A DNA stretch of 64,000 nt from an uncultured Methanosarcinales archaeon (GCA_964556185.1 CAZKVI010000003.1:2089-66088); one strand, 5' to 3'. Shown: positions 15,442 to 35,222, numbered from the stretch's first letter. Notes: generated by a model not told the origin, from the letters alone. A program made the numbers and translations.

Positions 15442-15873
15442 TTATTCACTCTTTTCTGCAGGTGCTTCTGCTTTCTCTTCACCAGCGTCTTCTTTCTTTT
15501 CTTCGGCTGGAGCTTCTTTTTTATCATCAGCACTTTCTTCCTTCTTTTCTGGTGCTGGAGCTTCTTGTTCTTCCTTCTTCTCAATCACTTTCTTAAAATG
15601 CTTTGCAATTAAACCTTCGCTCTCTAATTTCTCAAGCAAGTCTTTTTTATCATAGACATGAGCAATTAATTTAGCTCTTCTTGCTCCAAATCTTTGATAA
15701 ATGTGTTTAATTATAACTAAATCAGGATTAACTTTTAATTGAGTACCTAATGCAAACTTTAATTCTAGTCTTGAAGGTGTTGTAGCTGCAAAATTAACAA
15801 ATGCAGTTACTCTTTTCCTTGATAATAAAGGTGCGTCATTTTGTTTTGTTACTTCGATTTCCATCATCTTCAC
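15442..15873 (-). CDS. rps24e: 30S ribosomal protein S24e with an acidic/Lys-rich C-terminal tail
   Basis: '[12 protein letters not shown]...TPSR.E' type core. It is followed by the tail '[32 protein letters not shown]...'. Confidence 0.85.
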
Positions 15874-16058
15874 CTACACTTAATTGCATATTCGCCATCT
15901 TTTTCTATGCCAATCTTCTTTGCAATCTCAGATTTTTTAACATCAGTTATTGTGATTTTCCCTTGCCAGTTATTTGTAAAAGAACTTGCCTTACAAAGTG
16001 GACATTTAGCTCCTTCAACAAAACTTTTGCATAATTTACAAACTTTTTTCTTTGCCAT
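15870..16058 (-). CDS. spt4: transcription elongation factor Spt4 (RpoE'')
   Basis: 62 aa with zinc ribbon 'CKLCKSFVEGAKCPLC' followed by 'W.GKITI'. It has the conserved position after rpoE'. Confidence 0.8.
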   Translation of the reverse strand: MAKKKVCKLCKSFVEGAKCPLCKASSFTNNWQGKITITDVKKSEIAKKIGIEKDGEYAIKCR

Positions 16059-16059
16059 T

Positions 16060-16638
16060 TTACTTACCTGCTTTTGAGACTTTCTTTACTTTGCCTTCTC
16101 TTTTAGCTTTGTCCTCGTCAAACCATTCAGGCTTACCCAAACCTGATTGTCTCATTGTAAGTCCTAATTTTGGATTTGTTGGATCTTTGTAACTTACTGC
16201 AATAACCCTTGCTTTACAATCGTCACCAACTTTTAAACTTCTTTTACTTTCTTTTCCAAGTAAAACCTTATCCTTAGAAAAACTCACAAAATCATCCATT
16301 GTTTGTGATACATGAACCATTCCTTCTGTTGGTCCAATACTTAAGAAACCTCCAAAGTCTGCAATATCTTTCATTTTTCCTAAGAGAACTTCTTGCAACT
16401 CTGGTTTAAATGTGAATAAGTCAAAAACACATTCATAATAAGGGCTTCCATCGCCCGGAATTATAATTCCATCTTTTATCTCTTCAATACCACCTACATC
16501 AATAACGATTCCTAGGTCTTTTGAGATAAAACCCTCAAACTTAGCTTTGATTTGTTTAACAACTGCACTCTTTAATTCTAAATCGAATAATTCAGGAGTG
16601 ACTCTTATATGATCCCTAACTTTTGTTTTATAAAACAT
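16060..16638 (-). CDS. rpoE: DNA-directed RNA polymerase subunit E' (Rpo7)
   Basis: The N-terminal Rpb7-like region and the S1 domain 'VGDDCKARVIAVS' are both present. Confidence 0.85.
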   Translation of the reverse strand: MFYKTKVRDHIRVTPELFDLELKSAVVKQIKAKFEGFISKDLGIVIDVGGIEEIKDGIIIPGDGSPYYECVFDLFTFKPELQEVLLGKMKDIADFGGFLSIGPTEGMVHVSQTMDDFVSFSKDKVLLGKESKRSLKVGDDCKARVIAVSYKDPTNPKLGLTMRQSGLGKPEWFDEDKAKREGKVKKVSKAGK

Positions 16639-19896: not shown

Positions 19897-20112
19897 ATGG
19901 GAACAAAAAGATCAACAATAATACCAAAAGCACCTTTAGCAAGAATTCTAATGAATGCAGGTGCAAAAAGAGTTTCAGCAGATGCAGTAAATGCACTAAC
20001 AGATGCAATGGAAGATTTCGCAGAAAGAATAGGAACACAATCTGTTAAAATCGCAAAACACTCAGGTAGAAAAACAGTACATGAAGGAGATGTTAAATTA
20101 GCTGCAAAATAA
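19897..20112 (+). CDS. archaeal histone (HMf family)
   Basis: 71-aa histone fold with 'PKAPLARILMNAGAKRVSADAV' and 'HSGRKTVHEGDVKLA'. BRE/TATA 'cgtaaactttatatat' lies upstream. Confidence 0.85.
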   Translation: MGTKRSTIIPKAPLARILMNAGAKRVSADAVNALTDAMEDFAERIGTQSVKIAKHSGRKTVHEGDVKLAAK

Positions 20113-26569: not shown

Positions 26570-27862
26570 ATGGCAGATAAAAAAATCCATATAAACCTTG
26601 TTTTTATCGGACACGTCGATCACGGTAAATCCACTACAGTAGGAAGACTACTTTTCGATTCAGGAAATATTGATGAAGCAGCAATGAGAAAGTTAAAAGA
26701 CAAAGCACAAGAGCTTGGAAAAGGTGGCTTTGAATTCGCTTTTGTCATGGACAACTTAAAAGAAGAAAGAGAAAGAGGAGTTACAATTGATCTAGCTCAC
26801 AAAAAGTTTGAGACAGACAAATACTACTTCACTATTATCGATGCACCAGGTCACAAGGACTTTATCAAGAACATGATTACAGGAGCATCACAAGCAGATG
26901 CAGGTGTTTTAGTTGTAGCTGCAAATGATGGTGTAAATGCACAAACAAAAGAACACGTCTTCTTATCCAAAACACTTGGAGTTAACCAATTAATTGTTGC
27001 AGTTAACAAAATGGATATCTCAGGTGTTGACTATGCTGAAGCAAAATTCAATTCAGTTCAAGAAGAAGTAGGAACACTTTTGAAATCAGTAGGTTATAAA
27101 GCAGATGAAATTCCATTTGTAGCAATCGCTTCTTTACCAGGAGATAATGTTGTTAAGAAAACAGACAAAATGCCATGGTATAAAGGAAAATCATTATTAG
27201 AAACAATCAATGATCTTAAGGAACCTGAAAAACCAACAGAACTTCCACTAAGACTTCCAATCCAAGATGTTTATAACATCACAGGTATTGGTGTTGTCCC
27301 AGTTGGAAGAGTTGAAACAGGTGTACTAAAAGTTGGACAAAAAGTTGTAGCAATTCCAGGAAGAGAAGGAAAAGGAGTTCCAGGCGAAGTTAAATCTATT
27401 GAGATGCATCACGAACAATTACAAGAAGCTGTTCCAGGTGACAACTGCGGATTTAATGTTCGAGGCTTTGGAAAAACAGACATTGCAAGAGGCGATGTTA
27501 TTGGTCCAGCAGATAATGCACCAACATTAGCAACAGAATTCACAGCACAAATTGTTGTGTTAAATCATCCATCTGTTGTAACTGTCGGTTACACACCAGT
27601 ATTCCACATACATACAGCTCAAGTTGCATGTCAAATTACAGCAATTGAGAAAAAGCTAAATCCAGCAACTGGAGAAGTTTTAGCAGAAAATCCTGACTTC
27701 ATCAAAAATGGTGACGCAGCAATTGTTAAAATTAAACCAGTACAACCTTTAGTAATTGAAACACAAAAGGAAATTCCACAACTTTCAAGATTCGCAATCA
27801 GGGATTCCGGTGCAACAGTTGCAGCAGGTATGTGTACAGCTTTAACTAAAAAGGAACTTTAA
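26570..27862 (+). CDS. tuf: translation elongation factor 1-alpha (aEF-1A)
   Basis: '[10 protein letters not shown]', 'DAPGHKDF' and 'NKMD' are present. SD 'ggagga' lies upstream. Confidence 0.95.
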
Positions 27863-27926: not shown

Positions 27927-28235
27927 ATGCAAAAAGCAAGAATAAAGATAGCAAGTACAGACATAGACAAGATTAATAATACTTGTAGGTATATTTCTGA
28001 TATAGCTGATAAAACTGGTGTTGATATGCGTGGTCCTATTCCTTTACCAACTAAAAAATTAAAATTAACTACTCGTAAAACTCCTTGCGGAGACGGAAAA
28101 GCTTCCTGGGAAAGATACGAAATGCGAATTCATAAAAGATTCATTGATCTCGGCTTAGATGAAAGAGCTTTAAGATTGGTTATGAGGGTACCAATACCTG
28201 AAGGCTTGAACATAGAAATTGAAATGATTGATTAA
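27927..28235 (+). CDS. rps10: 30S ribosomal protein S10
   Basis: 'ARIKI.S.D...L...C..I...A...G....GPIPLPTK' pattern. It has the conserved position after tuf. Confidence 0.9.
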   Translation: MQKARIKIASTDIDKINNTCRYISDIADKTGVDMRGPIPLPTKKLKLTTRKTPCGDGKASWERYEMRIHKRFIDLGLDERALRLVMRVPIPEGLNIEIEMID

Positions 28236-28297: not shown

Positions 28298-28336
28298 CCT
28301 GAAGGCTTGAACATTGAGATTGAAATGATAGACTGA
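28298..28336 (+). repeat. second copy of the last 12 codons plus stop of rps10
   Basis: 'cctgaaggcttgaacattgagattgaaatgatagactga' versus 28197-28235 'cctgaaggcttgaacatagaaattgaaatgattgattaa'. The two are 34/39 identical and both translate to PEGLNIEIEMID*. Confidence 0.85.
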
Positions 28337-28390: not shown

Positions 28391-28828
28391 ATGGCTAAAG
28401 TTAAGAGTAATGCAATTGGAAAACTTGAAGATGGTACTGAAGATAATAGAGCATATAATGCATTGGTTCGTCAATATGGTGTTGCATTTAAAGAATTATA
28501 TGATAATTTTCCAAGAGAACCAAAACCAAGATTAGGTCTTTATATGATGAGTATTAAAAGACCTGAAGGAGTCTTACGTCTTACACCAGGGGTTGTTGGT
28601 AGTTCATCAGATGGGATCCAGAAAAGAGTTCAAGCACATCTAGGAAAATGCTTAGATCAAATTGGATTAGATGATTTATGTATGGACGTTTTTACAGTTT
28701 CTTGTAATAGTACGAGCAGTGTTTGTGAAATAACTCCTTACACACTTGAAGCTAGAGCTTATTTAAAACATTATGGACAACAAATACTTGTTCCAGAAAT
28801 GCGAAGATTAAGATCTCAATCAAAATAA
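28391..28828 (+). CDS. hypothetical protein
   Basis: ATG 28391 follows 'gggtgcaaa'. The listed TTG start at 28364 lies in the promoter-proximal 'ttgatttctct' block. No family recognised. Confidence 0.5.
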   Translation: MAKVKSNAIGKLEDGTEDNRAYNALVRQYGVAFKELYDNFPREPKPRLGLYMMSIKRPEGVLRLTPGVVGSSSDGIQKRVQAHLGKCLDQIGLDDLCMDVFTVSCNSTSSVCEITPYTLEARAYLKHYGQQILVPEMRRLRSQSK

Positions 28829-29232
28829 TCTTCATAAGCAAATTTTCTTTTTTCAAATGTACAAGATCCTTTGTCTTCAATAACATTTCCATCTAGAGAA
28901 TTCCTAAATCTAGCAATTAATGCATTACAATCACTACATCTTCGAAAACAAGTTCCAATTTCCACTTCAAAACCTTTTTCATTTAATTGTTTTAACTTAG
29001 TTGGCACTTCTGCTCTTTCTCTGAAGACATTATAAACATTATGAACAAAAGAAGAATCAATTATTGCATCAGAGAGTCTAATTTGAAGTTTACATTTCTT
29101 AGGTGCTTTAGTTTCAACAACATCTTTCCTTATAAGGATACATCTAGAATTCTTTAGTCTATTCTCTCTATCTTGCTTTTGCTTTGCAAACTTATCAGGA
29201 AGTTTAATACTTCCATCAGGATTGAATTCCAT
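28816..29232 (-). CDS. hypothetical protein
   Basis: Start moved to MEFNPDGS (ATG 29232), because the listed N-terminal 32 codons are the antisense or same-strand read-through of a tRNA gene. The ATG lies 5 nt after the tRNA 3' end. Confidence 0.45.
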   Translation of the reverse strand: MEFNPDGSIKLPDKFAKQKQDRENRLKNSRCILIRKDVVETKAPKKCKLQIRLSDAIIDSSFVHNVYNVFRERAEVPTKLKQLNEKGFEVEIGTCFRRCSDCNALIARFRNSLDGNVIEDKGSCTFEKRKFAYEDYFD

Positions 29233-29236
29233 TTTA

Positions 29237-29356
29237 CGGGCCCACGGGGATTCGAACCCCGGGCCTATGGCTGTCTGTGCGTAAGCAAAGACCCAGTGGA
29301 TCTTTGATCCTAACGCGTAAGAGGCCACCGCTCTAACCAGGCTGAGCTATGAGCCC
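29237..29356 (-). tRNA. tRNA-Lys(CUU) with a 45-nt canonical (37/38) intron
   Basis: Acceptor GGGCTCA/TGGGCCC. D arm GCTC-AGCCTGGTTA-GAGC. Anticodon stem GTGGC/GCCAT with loop CTCTTA|A. T arm CGGGG-TTCGAAT-CCCCG. G73. Confidence 0.75.
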
Positions 29357-29361
29357 ATAAA

Positions 29362-29442
29362 GGGCTTGACTGACCAAAGGGAAGGAAACCCTTCTTGCGT
29401 GTCGACCGAGCGTAACCAGTCGCCACGGGTGAGATTGAGCCC
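29362..29442 (-). ncRNA. 81-nt GC-rich structured element transcribed ahead of tRNA-Lys (leader or independent small RNA)
   Basis: TATA 'tttataaa' lies about 27 nt upstream on the minus strand. End pairing is GGGCU/AGCCC, with inner helices GACUG/CAGUC and AAGGG-UUUCCUU-CCCUU. It starts with GGGCTCA, as the tRNA does. Confidence 0.35.
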
Positions 29443-29485
29443 ATATTATTCTCAGAATTAAATATTAATTTATAAAAGTTCTTGA

Positions 29486-30367
29486 TTATCCTTGATAAAA
29501 ACCAATTAACTGTCTTTGTCTCTTAACATGTCTTAATTTTCTTAAGGCTTTTACTTCGATTTGTCTTATTCTTTCTCTTGTTAAATCAAATACTTGACCA
29601 ATCTCTTCAAGAGAATAATGACGAGGATGATCAATTCCATATCTCATTTTCATAACTTTTTCTTCTCTGGGTGTTAATTCAGCAAGTACACTTCTAACAG
29701 CCTTTGCTAAATCAGAATCCCCTACATTTTCATCAGGTCTTCGAACACTAGCTCCTTCTATAAAATCACCTATGGTTGCATCTGATTCATCACCAACTTT
29801 TTGCTCTAATGATAATGGTTCTCTTGCAAGCCTATAAATATCTTCAATTTTTTCAACTGGTTCACCTAACCAATCTGCAATTTCTTCAGAAGTTGGTTCT
29901 CTACCAAGATCAGTAACAAGTTTTCGAGCCGTTCTTCTAACTTTAGTAACCATTTCTAATTTATAAATTGGAATTCTTATTGTTCTTACTGTAGCTTCTA
30001 TTCCTCTAATAACACTTTGTCTAATCCACCAAGAAGCATATGTAGAAAATTTATATCCTCTTCTATATTCAAATTTTTCAACAGCTCTTATTAAACCTAA
30101 ATTACCTTCTTGAATTAAATCACCAAGTGGCAAGCCTCTATATTGGTATTGTCTTGCAATACTAACAACTAGTCTTAAATTGCCTTTTATTAAATCTTCT
30201 TTAGCTGTAGCTGCTTCATAAGGAGTGCCTTCTTCCATTGTTGTAGCTAATCTAACTTCATCATCTCTAGATAATAATGCTACAGCCCCCATTTGATTCA
30301 TATACTTCCTTAGAACTCTAGGATCATCTCTATATCTTGGCCCACCTTGATAATGACTAACACCCAT
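29486..30367 (-). CDS. bacterial-type RNA polymerase sigma-70 family factor (regions 2, 3 and 4; no region 1.1)
   Basis: '[61 protein letters not shown]' covers regions 2.1-2.4. '[13 protein letters not shown]' is region 3.0. '[15 protein letters not shown]' and '[29 protein letters not shown]' cover regions 4.1-4.2. Confidence 0.9.
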
Positions 30368-30502
30368 TTCATAAGGTAATCAATAGTTACTTTTAAACCT
30401 TCCTAGGTGGTCTGTGTTGATTATACCCATTCTCAAGTAGTTAAAAACAGAAAGGCTTATATATGGGATAAAGTACCTTCATATATAAAGTGGGGTTTAA
30501 AT

Positions 30503-31510
30503 ATGAGTAAAGCAAGACAGCTTATACAAAGAGCATTGGCAGCAAAAGATGATGAATTTTTTGATGGTGTTTATAGATTTAAAAGAGGAAATGTGTTTTC
30601 ACCAATCCCTATAGACACAGCTGACCATCTTGATCTTTATAGTTCTATAGTTCAGCTTTTGAGACCAAGCAGAACACCAAGAAAATCTATTGGGGCAACT
30701 CTACTTTATCTTTTCTTAGTATCTTCACAGGAGTTTTATGGTCAAGGACCTAAAAATTATACAACTTTTGGAAGAAGAGGAAGAGATCAAATGAAAGAAC
30801 AATTGGAAGCATATTGTAGTTCTATATCTGCTTTAGAAATTGTTTATCATGATAATAATACACCAGATGGAGCTAATGCAACTGTAGGTAAATTTGATGA
30901 ACATAGCACAAGACATGAATTAGAAGATTTACTAGATCTTGTTCGAACTGATGAATGGAGAGAAGGAAGAAGTTATGAAATTGTTTATGTACAATCACCA
31001 GGAGATCTTGTTAGTGAAGATGGCAGAGAAGATATTGTAGCAGGTAGTTTATCTCAAAGATTTATAGAAGGACTTAGAGTACACGAAGATTATTTTGCAA
31101 CAAATGATACATTTAGAGAAGAAGTACCTGATGAAGATTATGCACACCTTTTTGAAGGTGATGTTAGTCATAGGGAAACATATGAACTATGTGATCAATA
31201 TCTTGTAGATCACCAAGAACTTTCAGATACAACAAGAGAACATCTTGAAGGATTTAGAGCTAGAATGTTATTCATGGCATGCTCACAAGAACAAGACCCA
31301 AAGGCGGAAGCTTTCTTTGATGGATTAGTTGCCCAAGTTTTACCAGCTCTCCCAACAGAAGAGTTTTACATAAATCAACTAGCTAGAAACGTTGCACAAA
31401 CTGGCGGTGTGTTAATTCTTGAAGGATTCCAACAACAAGAAGTAGAAGGTTTCGAACTTCTCCAAGAAGATAGGAATGTTCGTTTATACACTAGAGTTGT
31501 TGAGGAATAA
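30503..31510 (+). CDS. hypothetical acidic protein, divergent from the sigma-70 gene
   Basis: ATG 30503 follows 'gtggggtttaaat'. The BRE/TATA 'gaaaggcttatatat' lies about 35 nt upstream. No family recognised. Confidence 0.55.
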   Translation: MSKARQLIQRALAAKDDEFFDGVYRFKRGNVFSPIPIDTADHLDLYSSIVQLLRPSRTPRKSIGATLLYLFLVSSQEFYGQGPKNYTTFGRRGRDQMKEQLEAYCSSISALEIVYHDNNTPDGANATVGKFDEHSTRHELEDLLDLVRTDEWREGRSYEIVYVQSPGDLVSEDGREDIVAGSLSQRFIEGLRVHEDYFATNDTFREEVPDEDYAHLFEGDVSHRETYELCDQYLVDHQELSDTTREHLEGFRARMLFMACSQEQDPKAEAFFDGLVAQVLPALPTEEFYINQLARNVAQTGGVLILEGFQQQEVEGFELLQEDRNVRLYTRVVEE

Positions 31511-31561: not shown

Positions 31562-32260
31562 ATGGATAACTCATTTATTGCTGAAGTTTTGAAATATTCT
31601 AATATGATGAATGTTGAGCAAGGTATGAATATTTATCATTTATTAAGTCAAGTACTTGCACAAGATATTCCTGGAGAAATAGTTGAACTTGGGTGTTATG
31701 AAGGTATTACAGGTGTTCTTATCCAGAAAACATTAGATCAAGCAAATAGTAAAAAAGAATTACATTTATTTGATTCTTTTGAAGGCTTACCAAAAGTCTT
31801 ACCAGAAGATGGTCTTACTACAGCAAAAGAAGGTATGTTACGAACAGCAAAAGATAGTGTTATAGCAAACTTTAACAGATTTAATTTAAAACAACCTACT
31901 ATTTTTGAAGGTTGGTTTAAAGATACTTTACCAACTAATCTACCTGATAAAATATGTTTTGCACATTTAGATGGAGATATGTATTCTTCAATAATAGAAA
32001 GTCTTAATTATATTTATCCAAAACTTTCTAAAGGTGCAATTGTTATTATTGATGATTATTATTGTCGTGAAGGCCATATGAAAATAGAAAAAAGAATGAA
32101 TGAAAATTCATACCAACAATTTCGTAATATAATAACAGAAGTCAAAGATATTCTTCCAGGTGTAAAAAAAGCATGTGATGAGTTCTTTGAAGATAAACCA
32201 GAGAAAATAATTGTTTTAATGGCAGGTTGCGAAAGACATGCATATTTTAAGAAAATGTAG
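31562..32260 (+). CDS. TylF/MycF-like class I SAM-dependent methyltransferase
   Basis: 'IVELGCYEGITG', 'LFDSFEGLP', 'AHLDGDMYSS' and 'GAIVIIDDY' match macrocin-O-MTase-family motifs. Confidence 0.65.
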   Translation: MDNSFIAEVLKYSNMMNVEQGMNIYHLLSQVLAQDIPGEIVELGCYEGITGVLIQKTLDQANSKKELHLFDSFEGLPKVLPEDGLTTAKEGMLRTAKDSVIANFNRFNLKQPTIFEGWFKDTLPTNLPDKICFAHLDGDMYSSIIESLNYIYPKLSKGAIVIIDDYYCREGHMKIEKRMNENSYQQFRNIITEVKDILPGVKKACDEFFEDKPEKIIVLMAGCERHAYFKKM

Positions 32261-32295: not shown

Positions 32296-32973
32296 ATGGA
32301 AAAACTACACAGAGTTCAGAAATTATTAAGCAACTACGGCTATTGTTCTAGACGAAAAGCTGAAACATTAATCCAAGATGGAAGAGTTAGAGTAAATAAC
32401 AAAAGAATTACAATTGGTGATAAAGCTACTGAGAAAGATAATTTATATGTAGATAATAAACTAGTAAATAAAGAAAGTAAAATATACATAATCTTCAACA
32501 AACCTGTTGGTTGTGTAACTGCAGTAAGAGACAGAGATTACAAAACAGTTATGGATTTTGTAAAAGTTAAAGAAAGAGTTTTCCCAATTGGAAGATTAGA
32601 TTTCAACACTTCTGGATTATTATTGTTAACAAATGATGGAGACTTTGCTAACAAAGTAATGCATCCAAGATATGAAGTAGAGAAAACATACATCGTAGAA
32701 ATTGACAGACAAATTAGTAAAAAAGATATGCTAAATATCCAAAGAGGAGTTAAATTAAGAGATGGATTCACTTCCCCAGCTAAACTTAGAAGAATTAACT
32801 TAGATATAATAGAAATTAAAATCCACGAGGGCAAAAACAGAGTTGTAAGAAGAATCTTCAACAAATTAGGTTATAGAATTAACTCATTAGAAAGAGTTGC
32901 AATTGGTAAACTAAGATTAGGCAAATTACAATCTAAAAAATACAAAATTCTAAAAACAGAACCAAGAATTTAA
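32296..32973 (+). CDS. RsuA/RluB-family pseudouridine synthase with an S4 domain
   Basis: S4 domain 'RVQKLLSNYGYCSRRKAETLIQDGRVRVN'. Catalytic motif 'PIGRLDFNTSGLLLLTNDG'. Confidence 0.85.
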   Translation: MEKLHRVQKLLSNYGYCSRRKAETLIQDGRVRVNNKRITIGDKATEKDNLYVDNKLVNKESKIYIIFNKPVGCVTAVRDRDYKTVMDFVKVKERVFPIGRLDFNTSGLLLLTNDGDFANKVMHPRYEVEKTYIVEIDRQISKKDMLNIQRGVKLRDGFTSPAKLRRINLDIIEIKIHEGKNRVVRRIFNKLGYRINSLERVAIGKLRLGKLQSKKYKILKTEPRI

Positions 32974-35222
32974 CCCCAAGAATAATCAACAACTATATGC
33001 ACTGGAACTATTGTGCCACCATACTCAAAATTTCCCATACCTGCTCCTTGTAATCTTGTTGCATCGTTATTTAATTCTGCTAAAACATCTGGATTATTTG
33101 GATAATGAGGAACAACACTAGTCTTACTTGTAGATGAATCATGGAAATATCCAAATGGATCTGGTGTTGCAATTCCCCAGAAATCACATGTTCTTGAGAA
33201 CTCAGAAGACTCCCACCAAGATAATAACCAGTCAGTACTTCCATCATAAACATTCAAATTAACTTCATAAGCAGAAGGATCATCTTCAGAAGCTTCTAAT
33301 CTTGTTGGTGCTTTACTTGAAGAAGGATATTTCTCATCAACTTCCCATGTATTATATTCAGAACCACTTACAGTACTTGAATCACTTTCCCATTGCAGAC
33401 TACATGATCTTGCGTATTCTATAAATTGGTGTTCATTATAACTATAATAAAGCATTTGATCTTTAACAACAAACTCATCATTGTCCTCGTCATAAACCAA
33501 TGTATCTCTTGACATCATATATCCTCTTTCAAACCAAGATCCTGTTCCAGGATCTCCTGATAAAGTTAATTCAGACATATCTACAGATGTACTATAACTC
33601 CATGAATAAGTTGTATAACCACTCCATTCAGGAGCACATTTACCTTCTGCATCAATATCAAATTGAGTAAATGCAATATTATCTAAATGTGAATTTGCAA
33701 CAATAACAACTGCTACATCTATTTCTTCTGTTGGTCTTGTTCTACAAAATTTTAACTTTTTCAACTCAGAAACATCTTGGTAAAACCAATGCTCTCCAAT
33801 TTTATAAACTATTTGTGTTGCAAAGTCTGGTTGAGAATCTGTAGTAATTAAACTAAAATCAAACTCAACTCTATCAATATCATCTTCAAAGAAATAATAA
33901 TAATACATTATTCCTCCTGGGTTTAAATTAACTTCTTGAGTGTATTTTTCTTTATTCTCAAATGTTTTCTTTTTCCTACTTTGTCCATATGGTTTTTTTG
34001 TTGGTTTATTATTATGATCATAATAAAACTTAAATGGTTCTGTATTGTAATTGTATAAAGCATATTGTTTAAACTCTTCATAAAAGTCTGGTCTATTTTT
34101 TATTGCATCTTTCATACCTAATAAACCTGCTTCATCTAACATTTTCTTGACGACCATTCCATCTTTTCCATATCTATGTGATAAAAACCAAGGCCATAAA
34201 TAAGAACCATATTGATGATAAGTTACATTATCAGAGTCAAAAAAATCTTTATTAAAATAAGGAAAAATATTACTATCAAAACCATGCTCTGTATTAACTT
34301 CAGGATATGTAAAATCTTCTGACCATGTTGCAGTTGATTCCCAAATCCATTCTTCTGTAGAATATGACTTCAAAGGAATATATTGTTGAAAACAATGAAA
34401 TAATTCATGTGCTGTTGATGTTTTTAATGCATCATCACTTTGTGAAGTACTAATTAAAATATGACATCTATTAGCTCCTTCATGATCATCCATATATTGT
34501 TGTCCATCATCTTCTAAGCTTTGTACTTTTACATAAATCCAATCTGTTGGTTCTTTCATTCCAAGATTTTTATATTTATTATAAGAATGTTCTAAAGCAG
34601 CTTTTACAATATCTGCTTTATCAGTTATCCAAGGATCATCATAATGCACTTGCCATTTTCCATCAATTGGATGTTCATTATCCATTGCATTTACTGAAGG
34701 TATAATAGCTACTGCATCTAAAAATTCCCTTGCTAAAGATTCATCTTCTTGATTAATTTTATACCAATAACTTTCAGGATCATCAGGATTTGTAACAAAA
34801 GGTCTTAGAATATCTTGTGTTTCCTCAGAGAAATCATCAATTCTATCATTAATCATCAATAATAAGAAAGAACTATCTCTTCTTTCTGCTCTAATTGATT
34901 TGTATTCATTTGGTAAGTTTTTATGATCAAATGCTTCCAAAACTCTTAGAATATAATACTCTTCTTCTGTAATTATTCCTTTATTATGATAAGCATCATT
35001 GATTAATGTTAGAGATAATGGTTCTTCAGGTTCCTCTGGTTCTCTTTCTTCATAAATATCTAATAACCAGTCTTCAAAATCACTTGTATCTACATTACCA
35101 CCACCAATTGAAAATCCACTATCATCACTTCCACAACCTTTGAATAACAAGAATAGAATTACTAATATTACAATACCTACAATTGCAAGAAGAATAGTTT
35201 TCCGCCCCATAGGCATTTCCAA
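32970..35222 (-). CDS. membrane-anchored or secreted protein with an HExxH metalloprotease-like motif
   Basis: N-terminal anchor 'KTILLAIVGIVILVILFLLFKGC'. 'TSTAHELFHCFQQ' contains HExxH. The extracellular part is large, W/Y/D-rich and contains very few Lys (Lys-poor). Confidence 0.5.
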   Translation of the reverse strand: MEMPMGRKTILLAIVGIVILVILFLLFKGCGSDDSGFSIGGGNVDTSDFEDWLLDIYEEREPEEPEEPLSLTLINDAYHNKGIITEEEYYILRVLEAFDHKNLPNEYKSIRAERRDSSFLLLMINDRIDDFSEETQDILRPFVTNPDDPESYWYKINQEDESLAREFLDAVAIIPSVNAMDNEHPIDGKWQVHYDDPWITDKADIVKAALEHSYNKYKNLGMKEPTDWIYVKVQSLEDDGQQYMDDHEGANRCHILISTSQSDDALKTSTAHELFHCFQQYIPLKSYSTEEWIWESTATWSEDFTYPEVNTEHGFDSNIFPYFNKDFFDSDNVTYHQYGSYLWPWFLSHRYGKDGMVVKKMLDEAGLLGMKDAIKNRPDFYEEFKQYALYNYNTEPFKFYYDHNNKPTKKPYGQSRKKKTFENKEKYTQEVNLNPGGIMYYYYFFEDDIDRVEFDFSLITTDSQPDFATQIVYKIGEHWFYQDVSELKKLKFCRTRPTEEIDVAVVIVANSHLDNIAFTQFDIDAEGKCAPEWSGYTTYSWSYSTSVDMSELTLSGDPGTGSWFERGYMMSRDTLVYDEDNDEFVVKDQMLYYSYNEHQFIEYARSCSLQWESDSSTVSGSEYNTWEVDEKYPSSSKAPTRLEASEDDPSAYEVNLNVYDGSTDWLLSWWESSEFSRTCDFWGIATPDPFGYFHDSSTSKTSVVPHYPNNPDVLAELNNDATRLQGAGMGNFEYGGTIVPVHIVVDYSWG

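Follow-up and report, generated by a model that had tools for sequence, protein, structure and literature searches.

Sigma factors in bacteria and TBP/TFB in archaea mark the textbook divide in transcription initiation. The 64,000-nucleotide stretch of DNA analyzed here (the window) carries a bacterial-type sigma-70 gene on an archaeal chromosome, and the long retention of such a gene raises the question of what a sigma factor can do without its polymerase.

The gene has an ATG start codon and encodes, in order, regions 1.2, 2.1–2.4, 3.0–3.2, and 4.1–4.2 of a sigma factor. Region 1.1 and the nonconserved insert are missing, with only 18 residues ahead of region 1.2, and the domain architecture read from the protein sequence is accordingly group 2-like. 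All four Pfam sigma-70 domains are collinear and exceed their gathering scores, placing the protein in the sigma-70 family (Sigma70_r1_2, 34.6 vs. 22, E-value 2e-8; r2, 71.1 vs. 24, 7e-20; r3, 75.7 vs. 25.3, 3e-21; and r4, 68.9 vs. 24.1, 3e-19). An earlier sequence-only reading of this DNA had described a complete sigma-70 factor with preserved regions 2 to 4 and had proposed a search with the r2, r3, and r4 profiles; all three match, the similarity covers regions 2–4, and both peptide strings quoted in that reading are found in the ORF.

The NCBIfam superfamily model TIGR02937 is the only one from that collection that the protein clears (118 vs. a cut-off of 42.9). RpoD models rank at the top, yet the protein falls below every equivalog cut-off, including those for RpoD/SigA, the group 1 primary sigmas (NF004208, 377 vs. 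555; NF006666, 327 vs. 572; and TIGR02393, RpoD_Cterm, 313 vs. 354), and those for RpoS (TIGR02394, 266 vs. 378.7; and NF004207, 261 vs. 394). RpoD is also the best match among solved structures (3e-87), and residues 51–290 of the archaeal protein align with residues 371–610 of the E. coli sigma-70 chain, which are equal lengths. MzaA, the ~700-amino acid sigma of the MZA anti-phage system, was considered and rejected: the NF041931 score is 313 vs. 800 with only the C-terminal sigma part matched, the PADLOC match is limited to profile positions 430–668, and no other defence genes occur nearby. A six-frame phmmer search found no second sigma in the window.

The state of the protein was assessed at 127 positions chosen for conservation of at least 97% across 99 other sequences of the subfamily, all bacterial. 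The four archaeal copies all leave 102 of these unchanged. Seven positions have changes in common with the sister bacterial clade (described below), and the remaining 18 have archaeal-only changes, nearly all of them conservative (L/M, I/V, K/R/Q, F/Y, A/G, and S/A). None of the 25 changed positions coincides with a determinant of melting, −10 recognition, −35 recognition, or core binding. The residues critical in E. coli for core binding (D403, Q406, E407, and N409), promoter melting (Y425, Y430, W433, and W434), −10 recognition (Q437), and −35 recognition (R584, E585, R588, and Q589) are all kept, as is E458 in the same E. coli numbering. T440 is replaced by Ile and H455 by Tyr, as in the sister bacterial clade. 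The motif TRERIRQIE and a further, 20-residue motif are present, and the archaeal protein preserves the residues contacting β′ and the β flap, together with the GDFIE finger motif, no less well than those contacting DNA. Judged by these residues, the archaeal protein is a complete and canonical sigma with predicted capacity for melting, −10 and −35 recognition, and core binding.

The host is a DPANN archaeon of the Woesearchaeota. The closest named homologues of the EF-2 encoded in the window belong to 'Candidatus Woesearchaeota' or Nanoarchaeota (72–77% identity; 75–77% for Woesearchaeota), and DPANN archaeal markers are encoded together with sigma on the same contig, making this a DPANN sigma-70 gene. 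EF-1alpha and S10 lie 1.25 kb from sigma (Table 1). Pfam annotation of an identical JGI contig adds EF-2, L7Ae, S28e, L24e, and NDK, and a Pfam scan adds L1, L10/P0, an isoleucyl-type tRNA synthetase, S24e, and a PIN-domain gene. The bacterial-type sigma-70 thus sits, with complete domains, in a Woesearchaeon chromosome. Every factual statement of the sequence-only reading about the gene and its surroundings is borne out, since the sigma domains, the archaeal neighbours it listed (EF-1alpha/S10, histone, TFE, Spt4, and Rpo7), and the intron-containing tRNA next door have each been located.

Table 1. Features of the sigma locus and archaeal genes of the window, in positions counted from the first nucleotide of the window
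Feature	Position	Strand	Basis or remark
Spt4, 62-aa zinc-ribbon	15870–16058		Syntenic gene in a relative is PF06093
Rpo7	16060–16638		Pfam scan
Histone	about 19897–20112		Pfam annotation of identical JGI contig
EF-1alpha, archaeal anchor	26570–27862	+	Pfam annotation of identical JGI contig
Ribosomal protein S10, archaeal anchor	27927–28235	+	Pfam annotation of identical JGI contig
Conserved 138-aa gene, far side of tRNA	28816–29232	−	Homologue comparison
tRNA-Lys(CUU), 47-nt intron, directly downstream of sigma and adjoining it	29237–29356	−	Rfam
GC-rich structured element, about 85 nt, between sigma stop and tRNA	29360–29445	−	Locus comparison
Sigma-70 family gene, 293 aa	29486–30367	−	Pfam, NCBIfam, solved-structure comparison
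Divergent intergenic region between sigma and orphan neighbour, 135 bp	30368–30502	.	Whole-locus comparison
Putative archaeal-type TATA box, GGTTTAAAAG	30390–30399	−	TTTAAAA at −30 to −24 from the ATG
Divergent orphan gene, 335 aa from ATG 30503	30503–31510	+	Start set by homologues; mechanical ORF from GTG 30407
TylF-like methyltransferase gene	31562–32260	+	Pfam; absent at this position in strains L008 and L012
S4-domain pseudouridine synthase, conserved far flank	32296–32973	+	Pfam
Two other intron-containing tRNAs	48650–48897		Rfam
TFE-alpha	49376–49879		Pfam scan

A bacterial-type gene on an archaeal contig is by itself a ground for doubt, and the lone one here, as such a gene could be a bacterial fragment joined to archaeal DNA by assembly or binning. 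The identical sigma protein occurs on four other assemblies (56-kb and 4-kb JGI contigs from two samples, an ENA scaffold, and a 69-kb NCBI contig). Comparison of JGI, ENA (SPAdes and MEGAHIT), and Logan contigs revealed identical junctions in different samples, and the same archaeal neighbourhood surrounds sigma in at least five strain-level variants, which stem from independent samples and assemblers. Three orthologues (P0003, P0004, and P0005) from other samples and assemblers are 72–83% identical and retain both archaeal flanks in the same order: EF-1alpha, S10, a 145-amino acid gene, the 138-amino acid gene, the tRNA, sigma, the divergent orphan, and the pseudouridine synthase. A false join made in assembly could not arise repeatedly between flanks that have diverged together, and is therefore excluded. 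These recurring junctions, together with a GC content at third codon positions (GC3) of 10.5% in sigma compared with >90% in the nearest bacterial genes, leave an artefact with practically no chance. Sigma is a stable, vertically inherited part of the archaeal chromosome.

The codons of the gene have come to resemble those of its host. GC3 is 0.105 for sigma and 0.08–0.24 for neighbouring genes, as against 0.90–0.96 for the three nearest bacterial homologues with retrieved DNA, whose contigs are 68–71% GC. Relative synonymous codon usage of sigma correlates with that of the other 36 window genes at 0.95 (median 0.93), and 30 of its 35 Arg codons are AGA. Despite these host-like codons, the amino acid composition is still GC-like: the FYMINK/GARP ratio of 0.76 is the second lowest among 37 genes, for which the window median is 1.49. 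Amino acid composition was also tried as a proxy for AT-rich donors, but this GC-type composition of the archaeal sigma itself made it uninformative.

The region upstream of the ATG carries a candidate archaeal promoter. The TTTAAAA box is preceded by a purine-rich, BRE-like stretch, and GTTTAAAAG is invariant in the orthologous loci of four strains. The position of the box would fit a leaderless or very short-leader mRNA, and promoter function is inferred from this position and conservation. The intergenic region as a whole first appeared to be unusually conserved, an idea that was dropped because its 83–85% identity equals the genomic background (flanks, 85–100%). No sigma-70-type −35/−10 pair occurs in this region. 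Promoter-like sites of this type are likewise not enriched in 20 kb (75 found vs. 88 ± 10 expected) or near the sigma gene (3 vs. 4.5 expected). The sequence-only reading had called the gene resident and expressible rather than a contaminant, citing codons like those of its neighbours and an archaeal-style box before the ATG. Residence follows from the synteny of diverged orthologues and the host codon usage, and the box conserved in four loci suggests that the gene can be expressed.

Identity to the archaeal protein falls in steps among 8000 scored homologues, from 75–100% in the archaeal set, to 64–69% in a ~287-amino acid group (P0006–P0019), and to about 55–62% in many ~290-amino acid sigmas, some of which are labelled Myxococcota or Deltaproteobacteria. 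The P0006–P0019 group, the most similar to the archaeal copies, is a sigma of a high-GC bacterial clade. Three of its members share a bacterial context consisting of methylmalonyl-CoA mutase, TatAC, GGDEF, DivIC, ExbBD, Aminopep, sigma, and a PKD protein. In a neighbour-joining (NJ) tree, the four archaeal sigmas are monophyletic (bootstrap 100) and placed among the bacterial ~290-amino acid sigmas. They are joined by a second, divergent sigma of one strain with 75% bootstrap and by the P0006–P0019 clade with 57%. The direction of transfer, from bacteria to archaea, is clear. The tree had been proposed in the sequence-only reading as a way to identify the donor; it gave a bacterial origin and a firm archaeal clade, but we name no donor lineage because the sister relation to P0006–P0019 is weakly supported (57% NJ bootstrap).

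In another Woesearchaeon (EF-2 80% identical), S10 is followed by asparaginase and pyruvate kinase, and sigma is missing from this place; at this locus, sigma is therefore confined to a narrow lineage. A GTDB genome scan returned only distant bacterial matches, with peptide patterns too specific to gauge taxonomic spread. IMG/VR contained no relative of the archaeal sigma, and the best matches in phage records are about 50% identical (at most about 51%).

Next to tRNA-Lys, the locus varies between strains. The tRNA, 130 nt from sigma, is intronless in the related strain L008. The GC-rich element between the two genes is present in the window strain only (it is absent from L008) and opens with GGGCTCA, as does the tRNA. 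The TylF-like gene is an insertion specific to the window strain. A LAGLIDADG gene follows the tRNA in L008–L010, and integrase and TIR genes lie beside a homologue of the orphan neighbour in L019. L011 and L021 have a radical-SAM gene and a second sigma of 296 amino acids, which is 44% identical to the first and has SGSRIHQ instead of TRERIRQ in region 4.2. The 138-amino acid gene beyond the tRNA was predicted mechanically as a 170-amino acid ORF, the N-terminal extension of which runs into the tRNA and is unlikely to be real.

Such variability makes an ancient element at this site possible, and with it the reading that sigma is a functionless or nearly functionless passenger, brought as mobile-element cargo to a tRNA-linked hot spot and slowly decaying. 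The insertions and losses listed above, including the second sigma, fit this reading, as do the narrow distribution exemplified by the sigma-less Woesearchaeon and the orphan gene adjacent to sigma, which evolves nearly neutrally (omega up to 0.88) and is split into ORFs of 259 and 81 amino acids in one lineage. A 2025 study (PMC12647753) has moreover annotated two rpoS-like genes in DPANN viruses, one of the two being carried by a prophage. The features that would mark a provirus or integrative element are lacking at the window locus: no integrase was found in the Pfam annotation of the flanking genes (contig L001, about 10 kb on each side of sigma) or in the other window ORFs scanned, no tRNA-derived att direct repeats in 27.8–36 kb, and no PHROG matches or viral hallmark genes among the neighbours of sigma. 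The sigma ORF is intact in all variants seen, its classical determinants are untouched, and its promoter box is conserved. The host-like synonymous sites speak for a long stay in AT-rich genomes without loss.

Selection on the gene bears on the same question. The strains carrying sigma are close relatives (synonymous divergence of about 0.3–0.4; flank nucleotide identity of 85–100%). Omega, calculated by the NG86 method, which is biased at extreme AT content to the same extent in control genes, was 0.30–0.50 for six pairs of archaeal sigmas. For each pair the value is significantly less than 1 (0 of 200 bootstraps reached 1, and the upper 95% bound is 0.73 or lower). The flanking archaeal genes gave values of 0.06–0.20 overall (EF-1alpha, 0.13; S10, 0.09; EF-2, 0.07; pseudouridine synthase, 0.06–0.18; and the 138-amino acid gene, 0.11–0.20). 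At similar dS, no gene around the sigma of the bacterial sister clade is as conserved as that sigma itself (0.08, vs. 0.13–0.38 for its neighbours), and in the archaeon this order is reversed. The stem branch and the root-to-tip distances of the archaeal copies are also longer (0.91 vs. 0.73). Purifying selection on the archaeal sigma is real but relaxed, being four- to five-fold weaker than in bacteria.

For a passenger, the residual constraint would mean that the transfer was recent or that misfolded protein is selected against. An omega four to five times that of the bacterial sigma or the flanking genes is in keeping with a passenger, but omega significantly below 1 in all six pairs counts against one, and we consider the passenger reading unlikely.

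Constraint differs along the protein. Omega is lowest in region 2 (0.29) and region 4 (0.36), the DNA-binding domains, intermediate in the N-terminus with region 1.2 (0.44) and in region 3.0–3.1 (0.50), and highest in region 3.2 with the linker (0.71). This pattern does not discriminate among roles, since the linker is the least constrained part of the bacterial sigma as well.

The relaxed constraint in the archaeon was not visible to the sequence-only reading.

As to what the protein does, no bacterial RNA polymerase subunit or anti-sigma factor was recognized among those larger ORFs of the 64-kb window (about 50) that Pfam scans or existing Pfam annotation covered. With no bacterial core seen in the window, constraint loosened, and sigma-70-type promoters not enriched, the archaeal protein has probably given up the usual work of a sigma factor, which is to be the specificity subunit of a polymerase. 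Most bacterial-type helix-turn-helix regulators in archaea modulate TBP/TFB-dependent promoters. By analogy, our preferred reading, to which we assign a probability of about 0.4, is that sigma may have been co-opted as an accessory DNA-binding regulator working without a bacterial core polymerase.

The course of events is reconstructed as follows. A bacterial group 2-like sigma-70 gene was transferred horizontally to a narrow (roughly genus-level) Woesearchaeota lineage, where it lodged in a variable chromosomal spot beside tRNA-Lys. It now has the codon usage of its host and a putative archaeal promoter of the TATA/BRE type, and it has been inherited vertically under weakened purifying selection. 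With no bacterial core in evidence, the protein would have ceased to be a polymerase specificity subunit. In the absence of the autoinhibitory region 1.1, the helix-turn-helix of region 4, and possibly region 2, could bind −35/−10-like, AT-rich sites alone. Sigma bound in this way would modulate TBP/TFB-dependent promoters as a nonessential, sequence-specific regulator.

The retention of core-contact residues and of the GDFIE finger would not be expected from DNA binding alone, and it keeps alive two readings in which the protein still engages a polymerase. In one, the host, a presumed episymbiont, delivers sigma to a bacterial partner and redirects the core RNA polymerase of that partner. Phage sigma factors and nuclear-encoded plastid sigmas act comparably on a polymerase encoded elsewhere. 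Retention of all residue classes for bacterial core binding and −10/−35 recognition would be expected of such an effector, its evolution faster than that of housekeeping genes is as in host-interaction genes, and a bacterial donor implies ecological contact. The residues may, however, have been retained through just fold constraints and limited divergence. The protein is also collinear with cytoplasmic sigmas throughout, without an additional domain at either terminus, and its immediate neighbours include no recognized gene for secretion or transfer. As the known hosts of DPANN are in addition archaea (PMC8204110), we regard an effector as improbable.

In the other of these readings, sigma has adapted to the archaeal RNA polymerase, with region 2 docked on the clamp coiled-coil of Rpo1, and would be an initiation factor, alternative or auxiliary, or else a competitor. 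This coiled-coil is the site used by TFE and Spt5, is homologous to the β′ clamp helices, and is universally conserved in multisubunit polymerases. Such conservation speaks for docking, as does region 2 being the most constrained domain (omega 0.29), and sigma persists in a genome that carries Rpo7, TFE, and Spt4 in the same window. A compensatory pattern was not seen, archaeal-only substitutions at conserved sites being few and conservative, and we know of no precedent for a sigma docking on an archaeal RNA polymerase. Adaptation to the archaeal enzyme is thus quite improbable. There is accordingly a small chance that sigma has been kept because it still engages a polymerase, either that of a bacterial partner or the archaeal one at its clamp; if true, this would be the first case of a functional sigma that originates from, or is used by, archaea. 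The sequence-only reading judged that the sequence does not settle the role of the protein, and with several readings standing beside that of an accessory regulator, we concur.

That reading implied a novelty that the gene does not have. Sigma-70 genes in DPANN had already been described: Castelle et al. 2021 (Front Microbiol, PMC8204110) reported them as family fam00359, 'particularly prevalent in Woesearchaeota', ruled out mis-binning, did not find anti-sigma factors, and left the mechanism open. Literature searches for the function of DPANN sigma-70 turned up nothing functional. The present locus is a well-resolved further case. As in the report of Castelle et al., the gene is on a Woesearchaeota chromosome with archaeal markers adjoining, with no anti-sigma, and with TBP/TFB/TFE-type transcription also present. 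Unlike that report, in which the family takes up one paragraph (PMC8204110), the present analysis defines one clade, a fixed tRNA-Lys locus, the nearest bacterial relatives, the codon usage, and the relaxed selection, as well as the orphan gene linked to sigma and the diverged paralogue that some strains have in tandem with it.

Group 2 sigmas, such as RpoS, mycobacterial SigB, and cyanobacterial SigB–E, are primary-like and nonessential. The archaeal sigma resembles them in having regions 1.2 to 4.2 without region 1.1, and resembles the P0006–P0019 sigmas at 64–69% identity. It differs in having no visible bacterial core, and in an omega of 0.30–0.50 vs. 0.08 for the bacterial sister clade. 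Plant plastid sigmas, which are encoded in the nucleus, provide an analogy, and only an analogy, for an effector, the sigma being in one genome and the bacterial-type polymerase in another.

Virus sigmas (PHROG 351, those of jumbo phages, and the rpoS-like genes of DPANN viruses) are likewise sigma-70-type proteins outside a normal bacterial chromosome. The archaeal sigma matches PHROG 351 at 1e-81, and its locus resembles an insertion hot spot. It is unlike them in that its phage matches are about 50% identical, IMG/VR has no relative, and viral and integrase genes are absent at the window locus. In the archaeal host, the part that sigma plays in promoter recognition falls to TFB and TBP (PMC7289017). 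They share no useful homology with the present gene, which is unambiguously a sigma-70 and not a TFB.

The relaxed selection cautions against taking such genes as proof of a hybrid transcription machinery. The locus offers a tractable case, with a single-copy gene in a fixed place, several natural alleles, a clear bacterial comparison clade, and a diverged paralogue in tandem whose −35-recognition residues are altered.

The genes neighbouring sigma belong to no family of Pfam, NCBIfam, PHROG, or PADLOC, and no anti-sigma factor or regulatory partner was found nearby. The orphan neighbour adjoins sigma in every sigma-bearing strain. Its relatives amount to four clusters among 5.8 billion proteins in a word search and to 21 representatives in a profile search. 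Homology of its 367-amino acid mechanical ORF to the 367-amino acid Aminopep that precedes sigma in the bacterial clade was ruled out (BLASTP E = 0.11). A first structure prediction from four sequences had a pLDDT of 53 and was discarded. The predicted fold has a methyltransferase-like Rossmann core with a large helical insert, which is not a known anti-sigma fold. With an omega of 0.50–0.88, the orphan is near neutral in places, yet it contains invariant blocks.

The codon and amino acid compositions of the sigma gene do not agree. Its synonymous sites are wholly host-like, with a GC content at third codon positions of 0.105, but its amino acid composition is still that of a GC-rich genome (FYMINK/GARP ratio of 0.76, as against a window median of 1.49). 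This combination, at the present dN/dS (omega) of 0.3–0.5, is hard to reconcile with long residence. The mismatch hints that constraint on the sigma was far stronger until recently, or else that its direct donor was itself AT-rich.

Some related strains have a second sigma in tandem, which is 44% identical in sequence to the first and clusters with it in 75% of bootstraps. The second sigma has SGSRIHQ as its –35-recognition motif where the first has TRERIRQ, and 41 of the 127 positions that are at least 97% conserved in 99 other bacterial members of the subfamily are changed. In both L011 and L021, contigs carrying this second copy, the next gene is a radical-SAM gene.

The sigma stop codon is separated from tRNA-Lys(CUU) by a GC-rich element of ~85 nt, in a genome background of 31% GC. 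The element opens with GGGCTCA, as does the tRNA, and has a predicted folding energy of –30.7 kcal/mol (z = –2.6). Rfam offers no match for it, and the related strain L008 lacks it. The window tRNA-Lys contains a 47-nt intron, whereas that of L008, at ~90% nucleotide identity to the window, has none; the intron is thus a presence/absence polymorphism between strains. Directly past tRNA-Lys, three related contigs have a LAGLIDADG_3 homing endonuclease-like gene; none follows tRNA-Lys in the window.

The final 35 nt of the S10 gene recur 101 nt downstream in a copy that is 91% identical. The two copies bracket 66 nt of GC-rich inserted sequence, which contains a pair of short hairpins, GAGGCCGAAAGGCTC and GAAGTCGAAGACTTC. 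The arrangement resembles the trace left by a small insertion that duplicated its target, or else a structured 3' element.

Gene content also varies near the orphan neighbour, the divergent gene adjoining sigma. The TylF-like gene is missing between the orphan gene and a pseudouridine synthase in L008 and L012. In the related Woesearchaeal contig L019, the orphan homologue P0131 adjoins a phage-type integrase, a TIR-domain gene, and an SDH-family protease. These genes lie beside P0131 in place of a sigma, an indication that the equivalent position is taken up by an integrated island of a defence or mobile kind. Further along the window, a 750-amino acid protein has no Pfam match, and its orthologue carries a DUF6055 annotation; its omega (~0.30) is above that of housekeeping genes.

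Coordinates of features at and around the sigma locus in the window and related contigs
Feature	Location	Strand	Remark
S10 3' end	window 28197-28231		
S10 3' end, second copy	window 28298-28332		
tRNA-Lys(CUU)	window 29237-29356	(-)	
tRNA-Lys(CUU)	L008 7060-7134		
GC-rich element	window 29360-29445	(-)	
LAGLIDADG_3 gene	L008 7096-7833; L009 1074-1811; L010 2227-2964		245 aa
Sigma gene	window 29486-30367	(-)	
Second tandem sigma	L011 2264-3154; L021 628-1518		296 aa; some strains only
TylF/macrocin-O-methyltransferase-like gene	window 31562-32260	(+)	window strain only
P0131, integrase, TIR-domain and protease genes	L019 1468-5624		
750-aa protein	window 32970-35222	(-)	hydrophobic segment at N-terminus
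Two more intron-containing tRNAs	window 48650-48763; 48773-48897
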